From a virus, in IMG/VR virus record IMGVR_UViG_3300045988_110748: 41,334 bases of DNA. One strand, written 5' to 3'. Position 1 is the first letter of the stretch. Every line of letters starts with the position of its first letter. This document shows positions 427 to 32,863 of this stretch, piece by piece. The position numbers and the translations under genes are program-made. The notes under the pieces were generated by a model. That model ran no database searches. It worked only from the letters and a program-made list of their open reading frames with translations, and had not been told where the DNA came from.

Positions 427-2694
427 ATGGCAGACGGTAGCATAATTTTTGATACCGCATTGGACACAAGCGGCTTTGAAAAAGGAGTGCAGCAACTCGA
501 CAAAACCAATAAAGCTGCTGCAAATAGTGTGAATGAAACGTCGCGGGCGATAGAAGCACAAGTAAAAAAGGTAGAACGGCTAAAACAAGAATTACTGCTT
601 GCGCAAGATGTATATAAAGAGGCGGGGTTCAGGGGATTCAACACCGAACAAGCCGCCGTTGGCGTATACAATGCGCAGCAAGCGTTATCTAAAGCTACGG
701 CAGAACTGCGGGCGATGCAAAAAGCCGCTGATGATGTAGCCGCGGCTACCGACAAGCTCCCTCCCAGCGCGGAGAAGGCAGCAGAAGCCGCGAAGAAAGC
801 AGCCAAAGAAACCGAGGGAATAGGCAAGGCGGCGAAAAAGTCTGAAAAACAGATGGGCGGCCTTGAGAAACGGCTTGTTAGGCTTGCCCAGCGAGTTTTG
901 GTGTTTAATGTTATCTTGAAAGCCTTAAACGCATTCCGCGACTACTTGGGCAAAGCCCTGAAAACGTCAAAGGAGTTTACGGCGGCATGGAATAATTTTC
1001 GCGGGGCATTGCTTACGGCATTCCAGCCGATATGGGAGACCATATTGCCGTGGCTGACAAAATTTATAAATATTCTTGCCAAGGTTATAACGTGGGTTGC
1101 CGCGTTTTTCTCGTGGCTCACGGGCAAGAGCCTTGCCGCAAGCTCAAAAAATGCGAAAAACCTATACAAAGAAGCTAACGCGATAGAAGCCACTGGCAAG
1201 GCGGCAGACAAGGCCAAACTATCCCTTGCGGCGTTTGACGAGATAAATAACCTATCATCCAACAAGGATACTGGCAGCGGGGGCGGGACCAGCGGTGTTA
1301 CAACGCCCACGTTCGAGGTTGATACAAGCTATCTCGAAAAAGTTGAGGGCATAATGAAGAAAATCGGCGGATGGGTGCTTGCCATAGCCGCAGGGCTTGG
1401 CGCGTGGAAGATAGCAAGCGCATTTGGCGCTGACCTAAAGAAGTGCATAGGATGGTTTATGACAATATCCGGCCTTGTGCTTGGCATTACCGGCTTTTTA
1501 GACGCATGGAATGAAGGACTTAATTGGGATAATTTAATCCAGATACTCACGGGGGCGGCCTTGTTTGCTGGCGGCCTTGCTGTGCTGTTTGGCAAGGTTG
1601 GCGGTGCTATCGGGCTTATAATTGACGGCATTGCACTTATTGTAATAGGCATTAAGGAATGGGTTGAACAGGGCGAGCTAACAGACCAAGCATTTGTAGC
1701 AATAGAGGCGGGAATAATCGCAATAGGCGCGGCACTTGCATTGCTGATTAGCCCGTGGGCGTTGGTTGTCGCTGCGATCGCCGGTGTTGCGCTTGCCGTA
1801 TACAAATACTGGGACGAAATATCCGCATTTTTTAAGGGCGTTTGGGAGAAAATAAGCGCCTTTTTTGTCGGCATATGGGAGAAAGTCAAAGATATTTTCG
1901 CACCCGTAATACAATGGTTTAGCGACAACATAATAACGCCACTTGTCACATTTTTTGAGGGAATGGGCGAACGCATAGCGGCGGTATTTGAAGGCTGCTG
2001 GATAATAATTCAAGCTGTGTGGAAAATCGTTTCGGAGTGGTTTGACCAAAACGTTATCCAGCCCGTTGTGGCTTTTTTCAAGAAGCTTGGCGAGGACATT
2101 TCCCGCATATTCAAAGAGGCGTGGGAGGTAATAAAGCCGATATGGAACGCCGTGGCGGGGTGGTTTAACCAACACGTAATACAGCCAATAGTTAAGTTTT
2201 TTACCTCCGCATGGGACAAAATCAAAAATGCGTTTGTTACTGCTTTTGAAGCTATTTCGGCATTTGCAAAGAGCATTTTTAACAGCGTTATATCCATGGT
2301 AGAGGGTATTGTGAACCGCGTCATTAAAGCTATAAACGGCATAATCGGCGGGTTTAATAAGGTGGTAACGTGGGCGGCTGGGGTTATCGGCAAGGATTGG
2401 GGCGGAGTTGCGCTCCTGCCGGAAGTGCATTTGCCGAGATTGGCAGAGGGCACGGTTGTACCCGCAAATCGCGAGTTTTTAGCCATGCTGGGCGATAACA
2501 AACGCGAAACCGAAATTGTATCGCCGTTATCAACCATGAAGCAAGCGCTGAAAGAGGCGTTAAAGGAAAGCGGCATGGGCGGCAACATGAACGTTCAAGT
2601 TTTCCTTGACGGTCAAAAAGTATATGACAGCGTGGTTGACTACTCAAAGCGCGACATACGCCGCACGGGGCGATATCCGATTTTAGGAGAGTGA
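427..2694 (+). CDS. Tail tape measure protein
   Basis: 755 aa, directly after the chaperone pair. It has an N-terminal coiled coil (AEKAAEAAKKAAKE), a central Gly/Ala-rich multi-TM block, and repeated aromatic helices (FFKGVWEKISAFF, WFDQNVIQPVVAFF, WFNQHVIQPIVKFF). Confidence 0.9.
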   Translation: MADGSIIFDTALDTSGFEKGVQQLDKTNKAAANSVNETSRAIEAQVKKVERLKQELLLAQDVYKEAGFRGFNTEQAAVGVYNAQQALSKATAELRAMQKAADDVAAATDKLPPSAEKAAEAAKKAAKETEGIGKAAKKSEKQMGGLEKRLVRLAQRVLVFNVILKALNAFRDYLGKALKTSKEFTAAWNNFRGALLTAFQPIWETILPWLTKFINILAKVITWVAAFFSWLTGKSLAASSKNAKNLYKEANAIEATGKAADKAKLSLAAFDEINNLSSNKDTGSGGGTSGVTTPTFEVDTSYLEKVEGIMKKIGGWVLAIAAGLGAWKIASAFGADLKKCIGWFMTISGLVLGITGFLDAWNEGLNWDNLIQILTGAALFAGGLAVLFGKVGGAIGLIIDGIALIVIGIKEWVEQGELTDQAFVAIEAGIIAIGAALALLISPWALVVAAIAGVALAVYKYWDEISAFFKGVWEKISAFFVGIWEKVKDIFAPVIQWFSDNIITPLVTFFEGMGERIAAVFEGCWIIIQAVWKIVSEWFDQNVIQPVVAFFKKLGEDISRIFKEAWEVIKPIWNAVAGWFNQHVIQPIVKFFTSAWDKIKNAFVTAFEAISAFAKSIFNSVISMVEGIVNRVIKAINGIIGGFNKVVTWAAGVIGKDWGGVALLPEVHLPRLAEGTVVPANREFLAMLGDNKRETEIVSPLSTMKQALKEALKESGMGGNMNVQVFLDGQKVYDSVVDYSKRDIRRTGRYPILGE

Positions 2695-9622: not shown

Positions 9623-9651
9623 TTGACATATGCCTGATGCTGTGGTATTTT
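9623..9651 (+). promoter_or_regulatory. SigA-type promoter with extended -10
   Basis: TTGACA (9623-9628), a 17-nt spacer, then TGgTATTTT (9643-9651). It points into the non-coding repeat unit. Confidence 0.55.
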
Positions 9652-9654
9652 AAT

Positions 9655-9748
9655 AGTGCCATCCGGCAACGGATGAGGATTGAAATATTTGATTTTTCGT
9701 TTTTGCGTCTGGGACGCATGCCACCCGCTTACGGGTGTGGATTGAAAC
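9655..9748 (+). CRISPR. Mini CRISPR-like unit: two type I-C-like repeats flanking one 30-32 nt spacer
   Basis: R1 is TGCCATCCGGCAACGGATGAGGATTGAAAT (9657-9686). R2 is TGCCACCCGCTTACGGGTGTGGATTGAAAC (9719-9748). The period is 62 nt. The stem differences are compensatory. The 3' ends match the GGATTGAAAC/T handle. Confidence 0.6.
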
Positions 9749-9771
9749 ATCTACTTTTAGGTTTTCAAGCC

Positions 9772-9809
9772 GAAAGAAAAAGATGCACCGCCGTGCATCT
9801 TTTTTCTTT
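9772..9809. terminator. Bidirectional rho-independent terminator
   Basis: AGATGCAC-cgcc-GTGCATCT stem (9781-9800), flanked by GAAAGAAAA upstream and TTTTTCTTTC downstream. It closes the + strand repeat unit and the - strand gene that ends at 9816. Confidence 0.75.
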
Positions 9810-14024: not shown

Positions 14025-15167
14025 TTAATCGCCGCCGTTGCCGTGCGCTTTGGGGCTGGCAACTTTGCGGCAACTTTTTTCAAATGCGCCCTGTAACTGT
14101 TCTGCACTGTATTTTTCCTTCTGCGCCGAAAGGTGTGAATATATTTCAAGCGTGATTTTCGCGTTGGCGTGGCCTAAATATCGCTGCGCCGAAAGCACGT
14201 CCACACCCGCGTTATACAGCACGCTGGCGTAATTGTGTCGAAGGTAATGCGGGGTTATAACCGATATCATCCGCCCGCCTTTTTCAATCGCGTCAATCTC
14301 CAGCGCGATATCGTACAGCCGCGCCATCAAATCGTCCCATAGGCGGTATCGCGTCGCATTGCGGTGATATGACCCTGTGGACGACGGTACTACATACGAC
14401 TGCGGCAGACCGCGCACGGGGCGCAGCTTGTCAGCCAGTTCGCGCGGCATGGGTATCGTCCGCACGGACTTATCCGTTTTGGGTGCATCTATTTCCCCCG
14501 TCTTGCCCGCCGCCTGCTGTTCAACGCGAATTGTCCCCGCCTTGAAGTCAACGTGCCGCCATTGCAGGCCGCAAGCCTCACCGTAGCGCATGCCCGTGTA
14601 ATATAGCAGCGCAAGCATTAGCGTGCCGTCCTCGTCCATCAGGCGCAGAACCGCATCCGTCTCCGCGTCCGTCAATGCCCTGCGCGTCTCCTTTGGCTTG
14701 GACGGAATTGTAAGCCCGACAGTGATGTCACGCGGGATAAGCCCCTGACTATACGCCCGCTGAAATACCCCGCGCAGGATTGTAGATATGTTGCCTATTA
14801 TGGCCGCGCACGTGTCGGCCTTGGCGTTCAGCAGCCGCTGTAAATCCTCCGTGGTAATTGCCGTCAGCCGCCGCCCCGCCAACGCGGGGAAGATGTGCTT
14901 ATATAGTGCCGTGCGGTATGACATTTGCGCGGATACGCCTATATGCGGCTGCTTATACACCTCATACCATGTCAGCGCGTATCGGTCAAAAAGTATTCCC
15001 TCCGGCACTGCGTTTGCTCCCGTGACGTACTTTTCCCGCGCCGCCGCCTTAGCCGCTTCCAATTCTTTTTTGGTGCGCCCTGATACATACTTGACTATGC
15101 TTTTCCCGCTTGCGTCCGTGCCTACAGTTATTTTTGCACGGTAGCGCCCATCTTTTTGCTTCGCCAT
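14025..15167 (-). CDS. int: Tyrosine recombinase / phage integrase
   Basis: 380 aa. An N-terminal SAM-like domain is followed by the catalytic pattern TGMRYGEACGL...HYLRHNYASVL...LGHANAKITLEIYSHL (R, H-x-x-R, Y). Confidence 0.95.
   Translation of the reverse strand: MAKQKDGRYRAKITVGTDASGKSIVKYVSGRTKKELEAAKAAAREKYVTGANAVPEGILFDRYALTWYEVYKQPHIGVSAQMSYRTALYKHIFPALAGRRLTAITTEDLQRLLNAKADTCAAIIGNISTILRGVFQRAYSQGLIPRDITVGLTIPSKPKETRRALTDAETDAVLRLMDEDGTLMLALLYYTGMRYGEACGLQWRHVDFKAGTIRVEQQAAGKTGEIDAPKTDKSVRTIPMPRELADKLRPVRGLPQSYVVPSSTGSYHRNATRYRLWDDLMARLYDIALEIDAIEKGGRMISVITPHYLRHNYASVLYNAGVDVLSAQRYLGHANAKITLEIYSHLSAQKEKYSAEQLQGAFEKSCRKVASPKAHGNGGD
14056..14080 (+). repeat. Tandem (C/G)(T/C)GGCAACTTT x2, copy 2 (inside the integrase 3' end)
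   Basis: CTGGCAACTTTGCGGCAACTTTTTT is a direct repeat of 13837-13860, about 219 bp away. Confidence 0.6.
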
Positions 15168-24870: not shown

Positions 24871-25169
24871 GCACATATATACGCGCTGTTGTCGCAGCCA
24901 AGGCGATAAAGGCAATGAACGAAGAATATATAACCAAAGGCGATGCGATAGAAGCTGCTTGTAATGCAGTGGAGTTATTTCCCTCGGAATATCAAGAGAT
25001 AGAAAATGCTATTAACGGTATTGTTACTGATGTGGAGCCGGTAGTACACTGCAAAGATTGCCGCCTGCGCGGAAGGGAAGAATGCGCCATGTTTTACCGC
25101 TGTGAATGCGGGGAGCAGCACACGTGGGAAACGGATAACGACTTTTGTAGCTATGGAGAAAGGTTATGA
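24867..25169 (+). CDS. Hypothetical Cys-rich phage protein (100 aa)
   Basis: ATGA coupling at 24867. The motif EPVVHCKDCRLRGREECAMFYRCECGEQH is common in Firmicutes phage early proteins. Confidence 0.6.
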   Translation: MSTYIRAVVAAKAIKAMNEEYITKGDAIEAACNAVELFPSEYQEIENAINGIVTDVEPVVHCKDCRLRGREECAMFYRCECGEQHTWETDNDFCSYGERL

Positions 25170-26041
25170 AAAAGATACGGACTATAGATGACATCATCGA
25201 GGCGGATTGGGAGGATATCAAGCGGCGGCGCGAGCAAGGCGCGAATCTTGACCAAGTGGGCGAGCTGTACGGCATAACGGGCGCCACACTGGCGAGATAT
25301 GCAAGGCTGGCGGGCGTGGATATACCAAGGCGCACAGACTATAACCCGCTGCCATCCGCAGAGGATATACAGCGCCTACGCGACGAGGGCGTGAAATGGG
25401 CTGACATAGCCGCGAAGTATCATGTATCGCGCGACCGACTACACAGCTACGCGCAAGAGCATGGCATAGATACGCGCTTAGTGCGCAAGCCCACCCTGAC
25501 ACCAGTGGACTGGGATGACGTGTGCAAGCAGCGTGAGGCGGGCAAGACATGGGGCGATATTGCGGAGCCGTATGGCGTAAGTGGCCCGACGCTGCAAAAG
25601 CGTGCGGGCAGGCGTGGCATTGCCATCGGCCCCAGCAGATACGACAGATTGAATGCCATGCTTGACCCTGACTGGCCAGGCTGGAACGATGTGAAGCAAT
25701 TACGAGAATGCGGAAAGAAATGGACGGAGATTGCCAAGCATATCGGCGTGACTACCGCGACCTTGCGCAGGATGATGGCACACTTGGCGCTCCGCGCGCC
25801 GACAGGCGATGCGCATAAGTATTATGACGGCGCAAGCCCCTGCGAGAAAACCCTATACTCCCAGACACTGTGCTGGTCTTGCGCCAATGCCGTGCCGGAT
25901 AAGTCGGGCAAGCGCGGGTGCGCATGGAGCAGACACTTTAAGCCCGTCAAGGGCTGGGACGCAGACGAGACGCGGCTATACAGCGACAAGCCGACGCAAT
26001 CGTACCATGTGCGGCAGTGCCCAGAATTTGTGCGGGGTTAG
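25166..26041 (+). CDS. Four-fold tandem HTH-repeat protein with C-terminal Cys cluster
   Basis: There are four repeats of about 50 aa: DW.DI..RREQG..LDQVGELYGITGATLARYA, IQRLRDEGVKWADIAAKYHVSRDRLHSYA, VCKQREAGKTWGDIAEPYGVSGPTLQKRA and VKQLRECGKKWTEIAKHIGVTTATLRRMM. They are followed by C..CWSC...C...C. Confidence 0.7.
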   Translation: MKKIRTIDDIIEADWEDIKRRREQGANLDQVGELYGITGATLARYARLAGVDIPRRTDYNPLPSAEDIQRLRDEGVKWADIAAKYHVSRDRLHSYAQEHGIDTRLVRKPTLTPVDWDDVCKQREAGKTWGDIAEPYGVSGPTLQKRAGRRGIAIGPSRYDRLNAMLDPDWPGWNDVKQLRECGKKWTEIAKHIGVTTATLRRMMAHLALRAPTGDAHKYYDGASPCEKTLYSQTLCWSCANAVPDKSGKRGCAWSRHFKPVKGWDADETRLYSDKPTQSYHVRQCPEFVRG

Positions 26042-26050
26042 GAGGTAAAA

Positions 26051-26731
26051 ATGAAAACACTCAGATACGAAACACGGGATGCAGACGGAAATGACATTGT
26101 AAAGGATGTCGCAGTGAAGGAATTTGCGAGTGCCAAGGCGGAGTTTAGATGCCACGTCTGCGGACGGGAATGCAGCCAGGGCGTTAGAACAACGGATATT
26201 ATCTCGGGCTCATTTACGGACTACGCGCTCATAGGGGATTATGTATGCAATGACTGCGCAGACCTTTTTAGCCTGTACTTTTACAGCTACATTAAAGACG
26301 CTGACGGGATAAGGCTGCTAAATGTACGGAGCATTCGGGACGAGATCACGCAGGAGCAAAAGCCGCCGTTTATGTTTGTGATAACTACATCGCAAAAAAA
26401 GCATCTATTTTATCGAGCGAGAATGAATCATGCGCCGACACCGTTCGCGGTGCAGCTTGAGACCGAGACGATATACACCACAACGAGCAGGATGCGGACG
26501 CTGTTTGATTTTGTTGAATCGCTTATGACACTCGGACAATCAAAAAAAGCGTTGGCGGATGGGGAGATGCGCTATGAAGTGATGCAAAAGGTCGGCGCGG
26601 GTGCATTTAGCTACCTTCGGCGCGAGCTGAGAGCATCACGGGAGATACAAATACCAATCTACTGCGGACAAAAAAGAGATATAACAGACGAGGAGGCAAT
26701 ATGTTGTATAAATTCAATACTGACAGCGTAA
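26051..26731 (+). CDS. csf1: Csf1-like (Cas8-like large subunit) zinc-finger protein, putative
   Basis: 226 aa with two CxxC pairs (CHVCGREC, CNDCADLF). It is the first gene of the block that contains Cas7- and Cas5-like genes. The call rests on size, the zinc finger and position. Confidence 0.5.
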   Translation: MKTLRYETRDADGNDIVKDVAVKEFASAKAEFRCHVCGRECSQGVRTTDIISGSFTDYALIGDYVCNDCADLFSLYFYSYIKDADGIRLLNVRSIRDEITQEQKPPFMFVITTSQKKHLFYRARMNHAPTPFAVQLETETIYTTTSRMRTLFDFVESLMTLGQSKKALADGEMRYEVMQKVGAGAFSYLRRELRASREIQIPIYCGQKRDITDEEAICCINSILTA

Positions 26732-27135
26732 AACACGCGAGTGCGGCGCTACTGCTCTACGCAATGTACCGCAGCCGCAACAAAAACAGCCCGCTGAATG
26801 GGTTGGAGACATGGGACAGGTTTAACAGCTACATCCGCGGAGCTTGCCTAAAAAGTAGCACAACGGCAGAGTTTATGCAAAAATTCTGCCGCGCGGCGAA
26901 GATAGACAGCGTTAAGCCACGCTATTTGTCAACCGACGATCCTGTGCTAATGCCTGGAACTGGCGAGCTGATAATGAGCGATGCTATAAAGGACTACAGA
27001 ATACCGATTATCGAGGATAACAGTCTGCTGCGCATAATGTCGGATGAATCAATTTATCTGTGTATGCTTGTACGCGACCGCATTCAACGCGAAAAGATGG
27101 AGTATAAAGAGGAGGGGGCCGAATATGAATACTAA
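26701..27135 (+). CDS. cas11: Cas11-like small subunit, putative
   Basis: 144 aa and helical-looking. It lies between the Csf1-like and Cas7-like genes and overlaps both. The call rests on position and size only. Confidence 0.4.
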   Translation: MLYKFNTDSVKHASAALLLYAMYRSRNKNSPLNGLETWDRFNSYIRGACLKSSTTAEFMQKFCRAAKIDSVKPRYLSTDDPVLMPGTGELIMSDAIKDYRIPIIEDNSLLRIMSDESIYLCMLVRDRIQREKMEYKEEGAEYEY

Positions 27136-28012
27136 TATAAAATACAGACTGCTTTCGCCTGTTTCGCACATTGGCGAGACCGCCAGCACCGGTAGCTATT
27201 TTCAAACCGTTCTCACGACGCAAGGGAGATTGCCTGTGATAACCGGCAACAGTACGCGCGGTCAGATCAGGGATAGCGCAGCGCTTCACCTCCTAAACAC
27301 GCTCAACATAAAAGTGGACAAAGAAATATTCAACGTGCTTTTTTCGGGCGGCAACCTCTCCGGCACGATGCGGGACGATGTAGAGCGGGCGAAACAAATT
27401 CGTAATTACTATCCGGCGGTATCACTCCTTGGCGGCGGTATGGGGACGATGATCATGGCGGGTAAGCTGCTGGTATCGTTTGGATACCCTGTATGCGCGG
27501 AGAGCGAGCAGTTTACGGGCATAGACAGCGCCCAATCTTGGCATGAGATGATTGAAGAGATTGAGTTTACACGCACCGATGACACCAAGAACGATGTAAA
27601 AGCCGGCCGAATAGTTAATATAAACGATGACTCAGGGGCGGGGACAGCATCAACGCAGATGCGCTACTCCGTACAGTATATTGCAGCGGGAACGGAGATT
27701 GTACAAAACCTTATTACACTTGATGGCACAACGCCTCTAGAAATCGGCGCACTGTATGCAGCTATATGCGAGTGGTTTAAGGTGCCGAGGCTTGGCGGCA
27801 TGGCGGCAAAAGGGTTTGGCTTGTTCGATGCTGTTGTCGGTGACCGCGATATAGTCCTTAGCGGCGGCAGGATAACGCTGAAACCGCAAATTGCAGATCT
27901 TATCGATGCATATGAGACTTTTGTCCGCGAGGAGGGCGGCGAGCATTTATCGCTCCTTGCCGCACCGAAAGGAGGGAAGAAGGGTGGCAAAAAAGCCAAC
28001 AACGCCGATTAA
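27125..28012 (+). CDS. csf2: Cas7-family RAMP protein (Csf2-like)
   Basis: ATG at 27125 after GAGGAGGGGG. RAMP hallmarks are SPVSHIGE, LPVITGNSTRGQIRD, LFSGG, SLLGGGMG and the G-rich loop PRLGGMAAKGFGLF. Confidence 0.75.
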   Translation: MNTNIKYRLLSPVSHIGETASTGSYFQTVLTTQGRLPVITGNSTRGQIRDSAALHLLNTLNIKVDKEIFNVLFSGGNLSGTMRDDVERAKQIRNYYPAVSLLGGGMGTMIMAGKLLVSFGYPVCAESEQFTGIDSAQSWHEMIEEIEFTRTDDTKNDVKAGRIVNINDDSGAGTASTQMRYSVQYIAAGTEIVQNLITLDGTTPLEIGALYAAICEWFKVPRLGGMAAKGFGLFDAVVGDRDIVLSGGRITLKPQIADLIDAYETFVREEGGEHLSLLAAPKGGKKGGKKANNAD

Positions 28013-28691
28013 AGTCACGGCGCACCTGCTTGACGGCAGAGTAAATACGGCAGACGGGATCATTATGTTGGACGCGATATTGTATCATGCGTGGTTTAGC
28101 AGACACAAGCCGGAGGTCTTAGAGGGCTGCGGCAGCACGCAATATGACGGATATACGGGGCTGCCGTTGCGGCAGCTCCCCGATAATAGATGGGCGGCAA
28201 GCAGAGGCATATTTAAGACCGAGGGCAAAAACATCGAATACATAAATAGGAGACCTAACTTTTTCGATGCGGACAAGATCGGACATCTTGACATGGAGAC
28301 GGGTATAATATCGGACAGCGTAGGCGTATACCGGGCGTACCGCATACCGCGAGTTGTCAGCACTGTCAGCGATATAGAGTTTTATGCCATGGGCGACAAG
28401 GCTAAAGTGCAAGACCTATTGACGGCGATCCCGGCCGTAGGCAAAAAGCCCGCGGTGGGATATGGTTTTGTAGCCGAATGGAATGTGGAGGACTGCGACG
28501 AGGATTACAGTCTGTGGCACCCTGAGTACGGACTTATGCGCCCGGTGGTGGTCGGCAGTGACGAGGCAAAGGGGCTTGAGCTTAGTACATATCCCGTTAT
28601 GCAATACGGAATAAAGCCACCTTACTGGAAACCCTGCAATATGCGTTTGTGCCATGTGCCGATTGCTACGGCGGAGAATGCGACAACATGA
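27984..28691 (+). CDS. csf3: Cas5-family protein (Csf3-like)
   Basis: Probable GTG start at 27984 after GGAGGGAAGAAGG. The N-terminal IKVTAHLLDG...GIIMLDAILYHAW resembles the Csf3 N-terminus as I remember it. It follows the Cas7-like gene. Confidence 0.6.
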   Translation: MAKKPTTPIKVTAHLLDGRVNTADGIIMLDAILYHAWFSRHKPEVLEGCGSTQYDGYTGLPLRQLPDNRWAASRGIFKTEGKNIEYINRRPNFFDADKIGHLDMETGIISDSVGVYRAYRIPRVVSTVSDIEFYAMGDKAKVQDLLTAIPAVGKKPAVGYGFVAEWNVEDCDEDYSLWHPEYGLMRPVVVGSDEAKGLELSTYPVMQYGIKPPYWKPCNMRLCHVPIATAENATT

Positions 28692-29461
28692 CTATTGACG
28701 ATTTTGTTAAGATAGGCGCGCTCAGGTCGGGCATGCGACAATACGCCGAAAAGCGGGACAAAGCAATAAGGCTTTGCGAAGAGCAATTCCGCACGCACAA
28801 AAGACCATATGTTGCAATAAGCGGCGGCAAAGACAGCGTTGCTATGGCGTACATTGTGGACGCTGCGGCGAGACGCGTCGGGGCGGATTATAGATTGTGG
28901 CTGCATTGCTCGGATGCATCGTTCCCCGGCACGGTAGAGACATGCCGCAAGGTGGCCGCGGCGGTTGGCAGAGAGCTTGATGTATTTGAAAGTAAGGATT
29001 CTGCGTTTGACGCGATAGCACGCCCGCAAAAGGCTGCATTTGGGAAAAGCGGCGTATTCTTCAGCTCGGTGCGCGAGTACGCAAAGGACAAAGATTTATG
29101 CTTTGTGGGCGTTCGAGCTGCGGAGAGCCGGAGACGGATGCGTGCCGCTAAAGCACACGGGCAAGTGTTTGACAGCGCATCAATGGGCGATGTGACGGTT
29201 TGCCATCCGCTCCTATGGTTTACCCTGTATGATGTCGCGGCGGCGCTGCACGAGTACGATGCACCAATACACCCGATATACAAAAAAATAACAATAGAGC
29301 GCGGGGAAAACCGGTGCGGTGAGGAATCGTTTATCCGGCTCGGTTATATAACGTCACGCGACCTGCTCAACAAAGGCACAGCGGTGTTTCTGCGGATAAA
29401 CTACCCGGACGAGTTTAACAGGCTTGCAGCCGCGTATCCGGAGATACGGCTATGGGTGTAG
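28688..29461 (+). CDS. cysH: PAPS reductase/CysH-like (DndC-like) PP-loop enzyme
   Basis: ATGA-coupled ATG at 28688. The PP-loop is YVAISGGKDSVAMAY, with the downstream motif FVGVRAAESRRR. Confidence 0.85.
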   Translation: MTIDDFVKIGALRSGMRQYAEKRDKAIRLCEEQFRTHKRPYVAISGGKDSVAMAYIVDAAARRVGADYRLWLHCSDASFPGTVETCRKVAAAVGRELDVFESKDSAFDAIARPQKAAFGKSGVFFSSVREYAKDKDLCFVGVRAAESRRRMRAAKAHGQVFDSASMGDVTVCHPLLWFTLYDVAAALHEYDAPIHPIYKKITIERGENRCGEESFIRLGYITSRDLLNKGTAVFLRINYPDEFNRLAAAYPEIRLWV

Positions 29462-29576
29462 CCAAGGCGGAGGGGAGGGGGTATCAAAATCCCTGCGCCG
29501 TGGCGGCTCGTACCGCGGGCCCCTCAACGGAACAAAAAATTTTCGATTTTTGTGAAAAATCAGGCGAGGCAGTAGG

Positions 29577-30163: not shown

Positions 30164-30964
30164 ATGGACAGCTTTAAGGAGAAGATGGCGCTTGGCGACC
30201 AGATGGAAATGACGGGCGAATATGCCGCATTCGTTGAAAAATTCAAGCCGAAGAAAACAACGGATGATTGCTACACGCCTGATAATGTATATGCCGCCGT
30301 CCTTGATTGGGCGGTTAAAGAATACGGCTTAGAGGGGGCGCGGATTATACGCCCGTTTTACCCCGGCGGGGATTACAAGAAAGAGGATTACAGCGGGAAT
30401 TGTGCGGTGATAGACAACCCGCCTTTTTCGATTTTGGCCGAGATTTGCCGCTGGTATAATCAGCGCGGAACACGCTTTTTTCTTTTCGGGCCCGCAAAAA
30501 CGATTTTTACAGGCAGCGGCTCTGACGGTATAAATTATGTCATATGCGGGCTATCGATAATGTACGATAACGGCGCGAGCGTAGACACGAGCTTTGTCAC
30601 AAACATGGGGCAATATAAAATTATGGTTGCGCCCGACTTGTATGAAGCAATAAAAGCGGCCGATGATGAAAACCGCAAGGAGGTTACAAAGTCGTTGCCG
30701 AAATACGATTACCCCGACCACGTTCTGACGGCGGCGAGGATCCAGCGCATTGCAAAATACGGGCAGTCATTAAGGATACGCGCCGAGGATTGCGCCTTTA
30801 TCCGCGCTTTGGATAGTCAAAGGGGCGCGGGGAAGGCGGTTTTCGGCGGCGGTTTTCTTTTGTCGGAGAAAGCAGCAGCGGAGAAAGCGGCAGCAGAGAA
30901 AGCAGGGGCAAAAACATGGGAGCTATCGGAGAGGGAGAAGGAAATAATAAGGCGGCTTGGGTGA
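30164..30964 (+). CDS. Orphan DNA N6-adenine methyltransferase (putative)
   Basis: Motif IV-like VIDNPPFS. There is a conserved CYTP near the N-terminus. The C-terminus has an EKAAA repeat. No cognate nuclease is present. Confidence 0.7.
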   Translation: MDSFKEKMALGDQMEMTGEYAAFVEKFKPKKTTDDCYTPDNVYAAVLDWAVKEYGLEGARIIRPFYPGGDYKKEDYSGNCAVIDNPPFSILAEICRWYNQRGTRFFLFGPAKTIFTGSGSDGINYVICGLSIMYDNGASVDTSFVTNMGQYKIMVAPDLYEAIKAADDENRKEVTKSLPKYDYPDHVLTAARIQRIAKYGQSLRIRAEDCAFIRALDSQRGAGKAVFGGGFLLSEKAAAEKAAAEKAGAKTWELSEREKEIIRRLG

Positions 30965-31540: not shown

Positions 31541-32863
31541 ATGAAAAAGACCGCCACAATACCGTGGCAGCCGTTAAGCGAGAAGCATAAGGCATACATT
31601 CTGCGCGGCATGAACGCCCGAATGTGCGTAGCTGAGGGCGCAATCAGAAGCGGAAAGACAATCGACCATTGCATAATGGCGGCGGCATATTTAGAAACGT
31701 GTCCCGACAAGATTCATTTAGCGTCAGGCAGCACCATAGCCAACGCGAAGCTTAATATTGGGGTGTGCAACGGGATTGGCCTTGAAAACCTGTTCCGTGG
31801 GCGTTGCCGCTGGGGGAAGTACAAGGAGAATCAAGCGCTTTTCCTTGCCACTCAGACGGGGGAGAAGATTGTCGTTTTCACGGGTGGGAAGAACTCAGAC
31901 AGTTACAAGCGGATACTGGGTAACTCTTACGGCCTGTGGATAGCCACGGAAATAAACGAGCATTATGACAGTGACGATAGCCGCGAAAGCTTTGTCAAGG
32001 TCGCCAATGGCCGCCAACTTGCAGCCGTGCGGCCTTACACGCTGTGGGACATGAACCCTTGCAGCCCGCGCCACCCGATATACACGGAGTACATAGACAA
32101 GTACCGCGACAACGGCATGAAAGGCTATGTATACGAGCATTTCACAATACGGGATAACCTATCGATAAGCGAGGAACGGCAAGCGGAAATAACCGCGCAA
32201 TATGACCCTAAAACCGTATGGTACAGGCGCGACATACTGGGCGAGAGATGCACGGCGGAGGGGCTTGTGTATCCGAGCTTTGCGGACACGCCCGAAAGGT
32301 ATATCATCGATGCGCCGCCCGCTATCCAGTATGCCAATATCGGCGTGGACTTTGGCGGGACTAAATCCGGCCACGCCTTCACGCTAACGGGCTTCACGCA
32401 CGGATATAAAGAAATTGTGGTACTGGATGAATATTACCATGATAACGCCAAGGACGGCCGCTTCAACCCCGACCAGTTGAACGCGGCCTTTATAGACTTT
32501 GTGCGCAGGGCACAGCAGAAATACAGGGTTGCAATCGCCCGATGCGATAGCGCGGAGCAAACGCTCATTGAGGGCTTACGCTCAGCCGCAAGCAGGGCGG
32601 GCGTGCCGATAGGCATTGAAAATGCGATAAAGGGCGCAATAAACGACCGCATAGCCTTTTACAACTCATTGATGGCGCAGGAGCGGTTTAAGATTATGAG
32701 CCATTGTAAAGCGACAATAGAGGCGTTGCAAACGGCCATATATGACGCGGATAAGATAGACGATGAACGCCTCGACAACGGCACAACGAACATAGACAGC
32801 CTTGACAGTATGGAGTATTCGACAGAGGTTGAGCAGTCGTCGATTATGTACATAAGGAGATAG
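31541..32863 (+). CDS. terL: Terminase large subunit
   Basis: 440 aa. Walker A-like GAIRSGKT. It has a PBSX/Terminase_3-type layout with a C-terminal nuclease region (DSAEQTLIEGL...D). Confidence 0.9.
   Translation: MKKTATIPWQPLSEKHKAYILRGMNARMCVAEGAIRSGKTIDHCIMAAAYLETCPDKIHLASGSTIANAKLNIGVCNGIGLENLFRGRCRWGKYKENQALFLATQTGEKIVVFTGGKNSDSYKRILGNSYGLWIATEINEHYDSDDSRESFVKVANGRQLAAVRPYTLWDMNPCSPRHPIYTEYIDKYRDNGMKGYVYEHFTIRDNLSISEERQAEITAQYDPKTVWYRRDILGERCTAEGLVYPSFADTPERYIIDAPPAIQYANIGVDFGGTKSGHAFTLTGFTHGYKEIVVLDEYYHDNAKDGRFNPDQLNAAFIDFVRRAQQKYRVAIARCDSAEQTLIEGLRSAASRAGVPIGIENAIKGAINDRIAFYNSLMAQERFKIMSHCKATIEALQTAIYDADKIDDERLDNGTTNIDSLDSMEYSTEVEQSSIMYIRR

Follow-up and report, generated by a model that had tools for sequence, protein, structure and literature searches.

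What is a compact block of five genes resembling an array-less CRISPR-Cas effector module doing in a temperate phage, and what might the phage gain from it? The block was first noticed in a preliminary description of a 41,334-nt viral stretch (IMG/VR record IMGVR_UViG_3300045988_110748; hereafter the window), made from the sequence by itself, which proposed a type IV-B-like Csf module joined to a CysH-like enzyme. All five ORFs (csf1, cas11, csf2, csf3 and cysH-like) were recovered on the + strand at 26051-29461, where that description had placed them (Table 1), and the overlaps of 31, 11, 29 and 4 nt between neighbouring ORFs were reproduced. The motifs it had quoted are present in the translations, namely SPVSHIGE, LPVITGNSTRGQIRD, LFSGG, SLLGGGMG and PRLGGMAAKGFGLF, together with the two CxxC pairs of the first gene and SGGKDS and VGVRAAESRRR in the fifth.

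Table 1. Genes of the cassette and limits of the insertion, in positions of the window.
Feature	Coordinates	Strand	Description
csf1 (g1)	26051-26731	+	226 aa; small Cas8-like large subunit; two CxxC pairs
cas11 (g2)	26701-27135	+	144 aa; type IV small subunit (putative, from profile matches); all-helical
csf2 (g3)	27125-28012	+	295 aa; Cas7 backbone subunit
csf3 (g4)	27984-28691	+	235 aa; Cas5; GTG start
cysH-like PP-loop ATP pyrophosphatase (g5)	28688-29461	+	257 aa
Mobile cassette limits	26042-29470	+	insertion relative to sibling phages (junction alignment)

The window is a temperate siphovirus, as had been supposed, with genes for a tape measure protein, tyrosine integrase, RecE/RecT, a DnaC-like loader, TerL, portal and major capsid protein. 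Its hosts belong to the gut Clostridia (Oscillospiraceae/Ruminococcaceae). The window and four IMG/VR siblings have the block flanked by a 4xHTH gene (hth4) upstream and a late regulator downstream, the position originally reported. The hth4 stop codon lies at 26041, leaving a gap of 9 nt before the cassette, and csf1 has a strong RBS (GGAGGT) 9 nt past this stop. The cassette lies within the rightward lytic operon that runs from early to late genes, 9 nt behind the preceding gene. Promoter-like and terminator-like sites occur no more often than shuffled sequence would give, and the integrase/repressor module is not close by, at about 10.5-15.2 kb.

The profile searches that the preliminary description had proposed returned type IV csf profiles for the first four proteins, at about E 1e-34 to 1e-50, and PAPS_reduct for the fifth. 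The first protein matches Csf1_0_IV of the PADLOC profiles at E 8e-34 and TIGR03114 at E 7.8e-14, the latter below the trusted cut-off. Its C34, C37, C66 and C69 are invariant among 18 homologues, and hhalign aligns it with csf1 of plasmid IV-B loci (Prob 95.5%), all of which bears out its reading as Csf1. Csf2 is identified by Csf2_0_IV (PADLOC, E 9.7e-51); it passes the Pfam RAMPs gathering score and matches TIGR03115 at E 2.2e-15, below the trusted cut-off. Its family profile matches the 7jhy Csf2 at 2.5e-8, and its best PDB sequence match is full length, to 11fs at 7e-21, an entry likened here by label only ('Cas7c', 'Cas5c'). The AF2 model of Csf2 resembles the IV-A Csf2 8rc3_D (E 8e-13, TM 0.62), the IV-B Csf2 of 7JHY (E 2.8e-6) and also Csm3, so that both profiles and structure uphold the Cas7/RAMP assignment. 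The csf2 ATG at 27125 sits within a longer ORF opening at 27044. Csf3, previously recognised as Csf3/Cas5-like, matches Csf3_0_IV at E 5.8e-42 (PADLOC) and TIGR03116 over its full length at E 4e-15, below the trusted cut-off, whilst its family profile matches the IV-A Csf3 7xfz_B at 3.5e-5. Its homologues match the newer Pfam family PF27782 Csf3, and they start at the same residue as the GTG-initiated phage protein (MAKxPT).

The second protein had been described as a helical protein in the Cas11 position. It matches Cas11_2_IV at E 1e-34 and a 'putative small subunit of type IV' profile at E 1.3e-34 (both PADLOC), and its AF2 model is helical (pLDDT 81). Neither Pfam and NCBIfam, nor PDB sequences searched with the family profile, nor PDB folds searched with Foldseek (best E = 2) gave a significant match. 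Hhalign relates it to the counterpart on a Rhodovastum plasmid (Prob 98.8%), and similarity to the actinobacterial Cas11 family, which includes the solved one, is undetectable (Prob < 1%). Its putative identity as Cas11 comes from the PADLOC/CCTyper Cas11 profiles only.

The fifth protein belongs to the PP-loop PAPS-reductase/CysH family, as its motifs had suggested. It scores 31.3 bits against Pfam PAPS_reduct (gathering cut-off 22.5) and matches phrog_2302 at E 1e-33, and its family profile finds CysD 1zun at 1.8e-12 and PAPS reductase 6vpu at 2.5e-10. SGGKDS, G141, R143, E146, S147 and R150 are invariant in the family, and no C-terminal Cys is conserved among 16 homologues. The enzyme thus lacks the catalytic cysteine that true PAPS reductases have at the C-terminus, as does the CasCysH of IV-B (PMC8175902). 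DndC, SspD, the BREX type 4 PAPS reductase and QueC share its ATP pyrophosphatase fold and SGGKDS loop. However, their partner proteins are missing here, there is no conservation of the cysteines used for catalysis or cluster binding, and the phage enzyme is associated with Cas proteins instead.

Taken together, the five genes are almost certainly an effector cassette of subtype IV-B, in which csf1-cas11-csf2-csf3 is joined by a PP-loop enzyme of the CasCysH type. The locus combines Csf1, Cas11 between csf1 and csf2, Csf2, Csf3 and an adjacent cysH-like gene with the absence of an array, Cas6, Csf5, DinG, RecD, Cas10-HD, Cas1 and Cas2. Likewise, the report that the module is array-less and without Cas6, Cas1/Cas2 or DinG stands: none lies by the cassette, and no Cas1, Cas2, Cas6, DinG or Cas10 was found among the 61 other ORFs of the window. 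Type IV-A has homologous Csf1, Csf2 and Csf3, and supplies the best structural match of the Csf2 model and the best PDB sequence matches of Csf3 and Csf1. However, it has an array, the Cas6-like Csf5 and DinG, and is without Cas11 and CysH, whereas the phage cassette is the reverse; we therefore rejected IV-A for want of the DinG helicase, Csf5 and an associated array. Type IV-C has Cas11 in common with the cassette, but there a large Cas10-like HD protein replaces Csf1. It was rejected because the first protein (226 aa) matches a Csf1 profile and no HD or Cas10 match occurs anywhere in the window.

The plasmid IV-B loci of Mycobacterium sp. JS623 (PDB 7JHY), Rhodococcus pREL1 and the Rhodovastum plasmid RHOApd have the same csf1, cas11, csf2, csf3 order and proteins of similar size (216/137/292/241 aa in pREL1 against 226/144/295/235 aa in the phage). 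They too have an adjacent PAPS-reductase-family gene and are without array, Cas6, helicase or adaptation genes. They differ in their carriers, which are large plasmids rather than a 41-kb temperate siphovirus of Clostridia, and in sequence: the phage Csf2 is only 25-34% identical to plasmid IV-B Csf2, and for the phage Cas11 similarity is detected to the Rhodovastum protein and not to actinobacterial Cas11. Moreover, the phage cysH runs in the same direction as csf3, with a 4-nt overlap, whereas that of Rhodococcus is divergent and upstream. Closer in setting are the archaeal viruses 'Fuxiviridae' (PMC10848311) and Skermania phage SPI1, in which a virus-borne IV-B has its CysH-like gene adjoining csf3. 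In SPI1 (KR011061, orf40-44, unannotated) the tblastn matches to csf2, csf3 and cysH keep the gene order of the window. The hosts of these viruses are archaea and actinobacteria as opposed to Clostridia, and the Fuxivirus has a mini-array by its cas genes, which the window phage does not. The preliminary description had implied that IV-B in a Gram-positive phage was novel, which was an overstatement: earlier work had described type IV-B from prophages and from Firmicutes (PMC7038947), and a 58%-identical homologue in nr carries the label 'CRISPR type IV/AFERR-associated protein [Caudoviricetes sp.]'. The cassette is one more instance of a system already described, not a new kind of system.

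Comparison with sibling phages showed the cassette to be a clean 3.4-kb insertion whose sole content is the five ORFs. Five genomes carry the block, the window and the four IMG/VR siblings, whilst in about 16 siblings with a regulator 90-98% identical a stretch of 123 nt separates the two flanking genes, and neither the cassette nor anything else lies there. Identity to these 'empty' siblings stops directly behind the hth4 stop codon and returns about 10 nt past the cysH stop. The cassette is mobile, and because the whole block is either present or missing, the siblings establish the five genes as one unit, independently of the overlaps from which this had been argued. The same comparison removed the 4xHTH gene, earlier noted as preceding the block, as a cassette member, since cassette-less siblings have it. 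A methyltransferase-like gene (p266) was likewise rejected as linked, its presence or absence among the siblings being independent of the cassette.

All five cassette genes are under purifying selection (pN/pS 0.07-0.19). Pseudogenisation was rejected on these values, well under 1, and decay is excluded by this selection together with conservation over > 400 clusters. Csf2 homologues fall into > 400 protein clusters, mostly from phage-sized gut contigs and MAGs of Oscillospiraceae/Ruminococcaceae, and the four csf genes were syntenic in 24/24 distinct relatives retrieved. In one unrelated phage lineage, too, the cassette directly precedes the structural genes. A blastn search of 50,697 phage records with the 3.4-kb block gave no match, and tblastn of the same records with Csf2 matched SPI1 only. 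The IV-B cassette is a functional, optional insertion in this temperate siphovirus.

What, then, might it do? In the Mycobacterium IV-B complex, Csf2 and Cas11 polymerise on ~55-60-nt RNA with no requirement for crRNA, and Csf3 and Csf1 cap the filament (PMC7937560). By analogy, the phage Csf2 and Cas11 may form an RNA-bound filament capped by Csf3 and Csf1, and the gene layout suggests that the complex would be produced in lytic growth rather than in the lysogen. The RNA-bound complex could then serve as a scaffold delivering the PP-loop enzyme to nucleic acid, which this putative modifying enzyme would adenylate or otherwise alter. The gain to the phage might be counter-defence or an advantage in rivalry with other mobile elements; an objection is that five genes would make for a much more elaborate counter-defence than the anti-CRISPRs known so far (PMC7038947). 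We put this mechanism, a lytic RNA-bound scaffold with PP-loop modification, forward tentatively. As a whole, the IV-B cassette with the lytic enzyme-scaffold reading is the best explanation, and a rather probable one.

The slot behind csf3 bears on this proposal. In relatives it is filled by CysH-like enzymes of two clades with a mutual identity of only about 20%, and in two loci by a B12-type radical SAM enzyme whose gene overlaps the csf3 stop. Distant homologues of this radical SAM enzyme adjoin a Csf3 gene in 4/4 sampled cases. A QueC-like enzyme occupies the csf3-adjacent slot in one locus (L008), although it could be part of a separate phage modification pathway. These swaps of radical SAM and QueC-like enzymes for CysH point to a Csf scaffold, bound to RNA, on which nucleic acid is modified. 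That the CysH partner can be replaced by a radical SAM enzyme argues that what matters in the system is the partner's chemistry on nucleic acid, rather than only binding directed by guides. A more general form, in which the filament would be an RNA-bound platform for interchangeable modifying enzymes in lytic growth (PP-loop ATPases from the two deep CysH-like clades, radical SAM enzymes of a dedicated B12-type family and perhaps QueC-like ones) and not a guide-directed silencer, seems to us doubtful.

Alternatively, the filament might be a sponge for crRNAs or other small RNAs that non-specifically absorbs host guide RNAs and blunts RNA-guided defences, the CysH-like enzyme being accessory or regulatory. 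Heterogeneous RNA binding in the sole solved complex (PMC7937560) is consistent with this, as are the lytic expression suggested by the gene layout and the anti-I-C measures that the phage appears to carry via a repeat-mimic element. However, a sponge leaves the near-invariant enzyme partner and its radical SAM and QueC-like substitutions unexplained, and its stoichiometric cost would be high for a 41-kb phage, making it unlikely. It is also improbable that the cassette is a prophage-encoded defence shielding the lysogen from other phages or plasmids. Although its accessory pattern, with some siblings having it and most not, would suit such a role, and IV-A acts in mobile-element conflicts (PMC7038947), the cassette is not near the integrase/repressor module, shows no own promoter beyond chance expectation, follows a gene of the lytic operon so closely (9 nt) that the two are coupled, and is without a guide source.

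Guide-directed silencing, in which Csf would load crRNAs from a host I-C system or from the phage's own repeat transcript (9655-9748) and bind matching competitor or host DNA or RNA, as in IV-A, depends on such a source. The preliminary description had reported an I-C-like repeat unit at 9657-9748, which is present (one or two units with their own promoter and terminator, at about 9655-9748); its link to the cassette fell away. The element is 16 kb off, and its 'spacer' is conserved, not variable. It is carried by sibling contigs 119252, 120314, 120669 and 122265 (34-41 kb), which are not among the Csf2-scan matches in the viral collection. Read directly, the cassette site is empty in 119252, 120669 and 122265, whilst in 120314 only the last hth4 residues were matched, immediately upstream of the regulator. 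Since the element is fixed and occurs in cassette-less siblings, it is no evidence for guide supply and looks unrelated to the cassette. Moreover, no I-C-like repeat lies within 10 kb of the cassette in any of 24 relatives, there is no meaningful repeat at 25.0-31.5 kb and no repeat family inside or beside the cassette, no CRISPR or other RNA family of Rfam came up to gathering score, and tRNAs are absent. In 1.5 Mb of related phage DNA the spacer-like segments had no protospacer, blastn-short finding only the elements themselves, and an exact search of the viral collection with the spacer turned up nothing beyond the copy of this repeat element in a sibling. The archaeal virus locus does have an adjacent mini-array (PMC10848311), and Csf1 and Csf3, handle-binding subunits of other class 1 complexes, are kept and conserved. 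However, the Mycobacterium complex did not take up co-expressed I-E crRNAs (PMC7937560) and IV-B shows negative co-occurrence with other CRISPR systems (PMC7038947), and we regard silencing as quite improbable.

Lastly, a Dnd/Ssp/Dpd-type DNA modification system or a decaying remnant in place of a Cas module is scarcely credible: the fifth protein has marginal matches to SspD (E 0.0066) and QueC models (E ~0.007-0.009 for the two), but for the other four the matches to type IV Cas profiles are strong and specific, DndA/B/D/E, SspA/B/C and DpdA were not found in the window, and the profile matches with the pN/pS values and conservation over > 400 clusters refute both.

In summary, the cassette is unremarkable as a catalogue entry; its four Csf proteins are all recognised by profile libraries already in use. 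IV-B belongs to the CRISPR-Cas subtypes without a demonstrated function and is still listed as uncharacterised in a November 2025 classification paper (PMC12669027). Besides the clue from the enzyme swaps, the window contributes the following: beyond megaplasmids, a large conserved IV-B clade exists in ordinary 35-45 kb temperate gut phages, and near-identical siblings with and without a clean 3.4-kb insertion form a natural comparison set suited to a phenotype test. If the Csf complex is indeed a platform for enzymes, phage IV-B would amount to machinery for modifying RNA or DNA that descends from CRISPR, and its chemistry would show in the enzyme swaps.

Overall, the window represents a temperate siphovirus, which encodes, besides the features in the table, an endolysin region, RecE-/RecT-like proteins, a DnaC-like loader, a portal and a major capsid protein. 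Successive ORFs of the cassette overlap by 31, 11, 29 and 4 nt. The five plus-strand ORFs were recovered with the coordinates and overlaps claimed in the preliminary description, and every motif quoted there is present in the translations. The shorter reading of csf3 is right, since homologues on other contigs begin at the same residue (consensus MAKxPT...).

Features of the phage window and of the compared loci
Feature	Locus	Position	Strand	Description or match
Tape measure protein	window	427-2694
Promoter of repeat element	window	~9624-9652		TTGACA/extended -10
Repeat units	window	9655-9686 and 9717-9748		hairpin + GGATTGAAA(T/C)
Terminator of repeat element	window	~9780-9806		strong
Tyrosine integrase	window	14025-15167	minus
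4xHTH gene	window	25166-26041		291 aa; about four HTH repeats, C-terminal cysteine-rich segment; left edge of insertion site
csf1	window	26051-26731	plus	PADLOC Csf1_0_IV, E 8e-34
cas11	window	26701-27135	plus	PADLOC Cas11_2_IV, E 1e-34
csf2	window	27125-28012	plus	PADLOC Csf2_0_IV, E 9.7e-51
csf3	window	27984-28691	plus	GTG start; PADLOC Csf3_0_IV, E 5.8e-42
cysH-like gene	window	28688-29461	plus	PP-loop enzyme; Pfam PAPS_reduct
266-aa protein gene	window	30164-30964		N6-adenine-methyltransferase-like NPPF motif (VIDNPPFS); phrog_21498 (labelled unknown function)
Large terminase	window	31541-32863
Empty insertion site	L062	6877-7001
Radical SAM gene	L027	11793-13052		B12-binding type; overlaps csf3 stop
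Radical SAM gene	L029	3642-4898		B12-binding type; overlaps csf3 stop
Genes after csf3	L008	11483-12868		246-aa protein of no assigned family, and QueC-like PP-loop enzyme (Pfam QueC E 1e-15; weak QatC match) in place of CysH-like gene

The profile searches bore out the identities first proposed by eye. The first four proteins match type IV Cas profiles of PADLOC-DB, a library that includes such profiles, and the fifth matches PAPS_reduct. The older TIGRFAM equivalog models gave specific matches that all lie under the trusted cut-offs (csf1 7.8e-14, csf2 2.2e-15, csf3 4e-15). The four Csf1 cysteines are invariant in 18 homologues, and a Csf3 family profile matched IV-A Csf3 in the PDB at 3.5e-5. 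Csf2 scores above the Pfam RAMPs gathering score, and the Cas7 likeness read from its translation holds at the level of fold, as its AlphaFold2 model (pLDDT 76) matched IV-A Csf2 (E 8e-13, TM 0.62), Csm3 (~2e-6) and the IV-B Csf2 of 7JHY (2.8e-6). A profile of 32 Csf2 homologues, searched against PDB sequences, recovered 7JHY Csf2 at 2.5e-8 together with IV-A Csf2 chains; its top match, over the full length, was the 'Cas7c' chain of 11fs (E 7e-21). Entries 11fs, 11hc and 11hd are recent deposits with chains named 'Cas7c' and 'Cas5c', and 11fs is far closer to the phage Csf2 profile than is 7JHY. Cas11 is the weakest of the gene assignments. Its predicted model is a helical bundle for which Foldseek returned no match, and profile-profile comparison linked the family only to its counterpart on a Rhodovastum plasmid (Prob 98.8%), with no link to actinobacterial Cas11 genes.

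A PADLOC and Pfam scan of the 61 other ORFs in the window found no Cas1, Cas2, Cas6, DinG, Cas3 or Cas10. Moreover, no Rfam family reached its gathering score in the window, no tRNAs were detected and no repeat family lies within or next to the cassette. All testable features that define subtype IV-B are therefore seen in the gene content: the Csf and cysH-like genes are present, with no other cas gene and no adjacent repeats. The 61-ORF scan and the repeat search thus uphold the earlier classification as IV-B lacking Cas6, Cas1/2, DinG and an adjacent array. In contrast to IV-A, there is no DinG, Csf5 or array, and the Cas10-HD of IV-C is likewise absent.

The downstream late regulator was used to scan the viral collection, which yielded 64 loci. 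Five genomes, the window and four siblings, hold the five genes flanked by the 4xHTH gene and the regulator. About 16 siblings with a regulator of 90-98% identity have 123 nt from the end of the 4xHTH gene to the regulator, with nothing between. In the junction alignment, identity with empty sites ends directly after the 4xHTH stop (26041) and returns ~10 nt past the cysH stop. Therefore, the cassette consists of exactly five ORFs and has no room for a non-coding RNA gene, and the 4xHTH gene lies outside it. We had considered the latter as a cassette member; this is ruled out, as it is beyond the insertion boundary and is conserved in siblings with or without the cassette. In all five carrier genomes the insertion point of the cassette is here, a few bases at most past the 4xHTH stop, and no flanking direct repeats or recombinase were evident there. 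The cassette is mobile and forms a discrete unit. Among the carrier siblings pN/pS is 0.07-0.19 in all five genes, synonymous changes far exceeding non-synonymous ones. The intergenic region that separates the regulator from the 4xHTH gene is a hot spot, with further empty sites in L064 and L061. The 266-aa protein encoded downstream had no Pfam, NCBIfam or PADLOC match; whether a sibling has its gene does not depend on whether it has the cassette, and L012 has a homologue (52% identical) directly after csf3.

The fifth gene encodes an enzyme of the PAPS-reductase family with a PP-loop (Pfam 31.3 bits, cut-off 22.5; family profile matches to CysD at 1.8e-12 and PAPS reductase at 2.5e-10). The SGGKDS loop and the GxRxxESxxR motif are invariant among its homologues. 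Their alignment shows no conserved C-terminal cysteine, an absence that Taylor et al. describe for the IV-B 'CasCysH' (PMC8175902). In most relatives the slot after csf3 holds a CysH-like gene from one of two clades, ~20% identical to each other; the PP-loop and GxRxxESxxR motif are common to both (window gene aligned with L006, L018, L022, L023, L026, L028 and L130). In other relatives the slot is taken by a radical SAM enzyme (in L027 and L029, whose copies share 42% identity) or a QueC-like enzyme. The radical SAM family comprises 88 clusters, and all four distant members sampled (L134, L135, L136, L137) adjoin a Csf3 gene in prophage-like contexts; in L137 a PAPS_reduct gene accompanies the radical SAM enzyme. 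A literature search found no published description of this association with Csf3. Among the new evidence, the variable slot speaks most strongly for an enzyme-centred reading of the IV-B cassette.

Csf2 homologues form at least 417 clusters at 90% identity; the best 120 of these are 55-99% identical, many on contigs of 30-60 kb. Among species-representative genomes, the relatives belong to MAGs of Subdoligranulum, Ruminococcus, Oscillibacter, Ruminococcaceae and unclassified Clostridia. The order csf1-cas11-csf2-csf3 is retained in 24/24 distinct relatives, and in an unrelated phage lineage (Phage_cap_E capsid, P22-type antirepressor) the cassette lies just upstream of the structural genes. 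PHROGs holds Csf2 and Csf3 families labelled 'unknown function', and one homologue is labelled in nr 'MAG TPA: CRISPR type IV/AFERR-associated protein [Caudoviricetes sp.]'. A search of 50,697 deposited phage genomes detected a homologue only in Skermania phage SPI1 (L001, KR011061, 32609-36242, orf40-44), where the unannotated orf42, orf43 and orf44 match csf2, csf3 and cysH at 25-31% identity and the two genes upstream are sized like csf1 and cas11. SPI1, an isolated actinophage, could allow phage-borne IV-B to be studied in culture. The plasmid homologues are the classical IV-B carriers, from Rhodococcus, Gordonia, Mycolicibacterium, haloarchaea and Rhodovastum. An earlier study had already recorded IV-B in prophages and in Firmicutes, and reports cysH as nearly invariant, with no arrays, mini-arrays or solitary repeat units alongside (PMC7038947). 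The system is also known in an archaeal virus family (PMC10848311), and the 2025 classification update lists it as nuclease-free and still uncharacterised (PMC12669027). Given these reports, the phage cassette is a further example of a described system, and its novelty is modest.

A separate I-C-like repeat unit had been claimed at 9657-9748. Two units are in fact present, each a hairpin followed by GGATTGAAAT/C, with one promoter upstream and one terminator downstream of both (9624-9806). Their similarity to Rfam CRISPR-DR9 is weak (E 0.04 and 0.14), and we take them to be of type I-C by likeness to the I-C repeat consensus. Across 28 sibling contigs the 'spacer' that separates the units is conserved, differing by point changes alone, and is not replaced; several siblings have one unit and some none. 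No protospacer for it was found in the viral collection or in related phage loci. The element also occurs in sibling contigs 119252, 120314, 120669 and 122265, none of which was among the contigs recovered when the viral collection was scanned for Csf2. Direct reading of the cassette site showed it to be empty in 119252, 120669 and 122265; in 120314 the match is limited to the last 4xHTH residues directly upstream of the regulator. The element appears independent of the IV-B cassette. By comparison with published cases (PMC10651486; bioRxiv 10.1101/2024.10.29.618823), it is probably an RNA anti-CRISPR of the solitary-repeat type or else a viral CRISPR-like regulatory RNA directed against a host I-C system.

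Taken together, these data confirm what was first observed and support its interpretation, with the corrections described. The phage carries a complete, selected, array-less IV-B effector set with a PP-loop enzyme within its rightward lytic operon. The cassette begins 9 nt after the 4xHTH gene and shows no excess of promoter-like or terminator-like sites; it would be expressed during lytic growth. In the sole IV-B structure Csf2 and Cas11 form a filament on heterogeneous RNA, and co-expressed crRNAs were not loaded (PMC7937560). By analogy with 7JHY, the phage Csf2 and Cas11 would assemble such a filament on RNA, which may position the enzyme on a nucleic acid and could serve in counter-defence or in competition between mobile elements. 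The value of the cassette lies in its bearing on IV-B function, for which it offers natural siblings with and without the genes and the clue of the enzyme swap.
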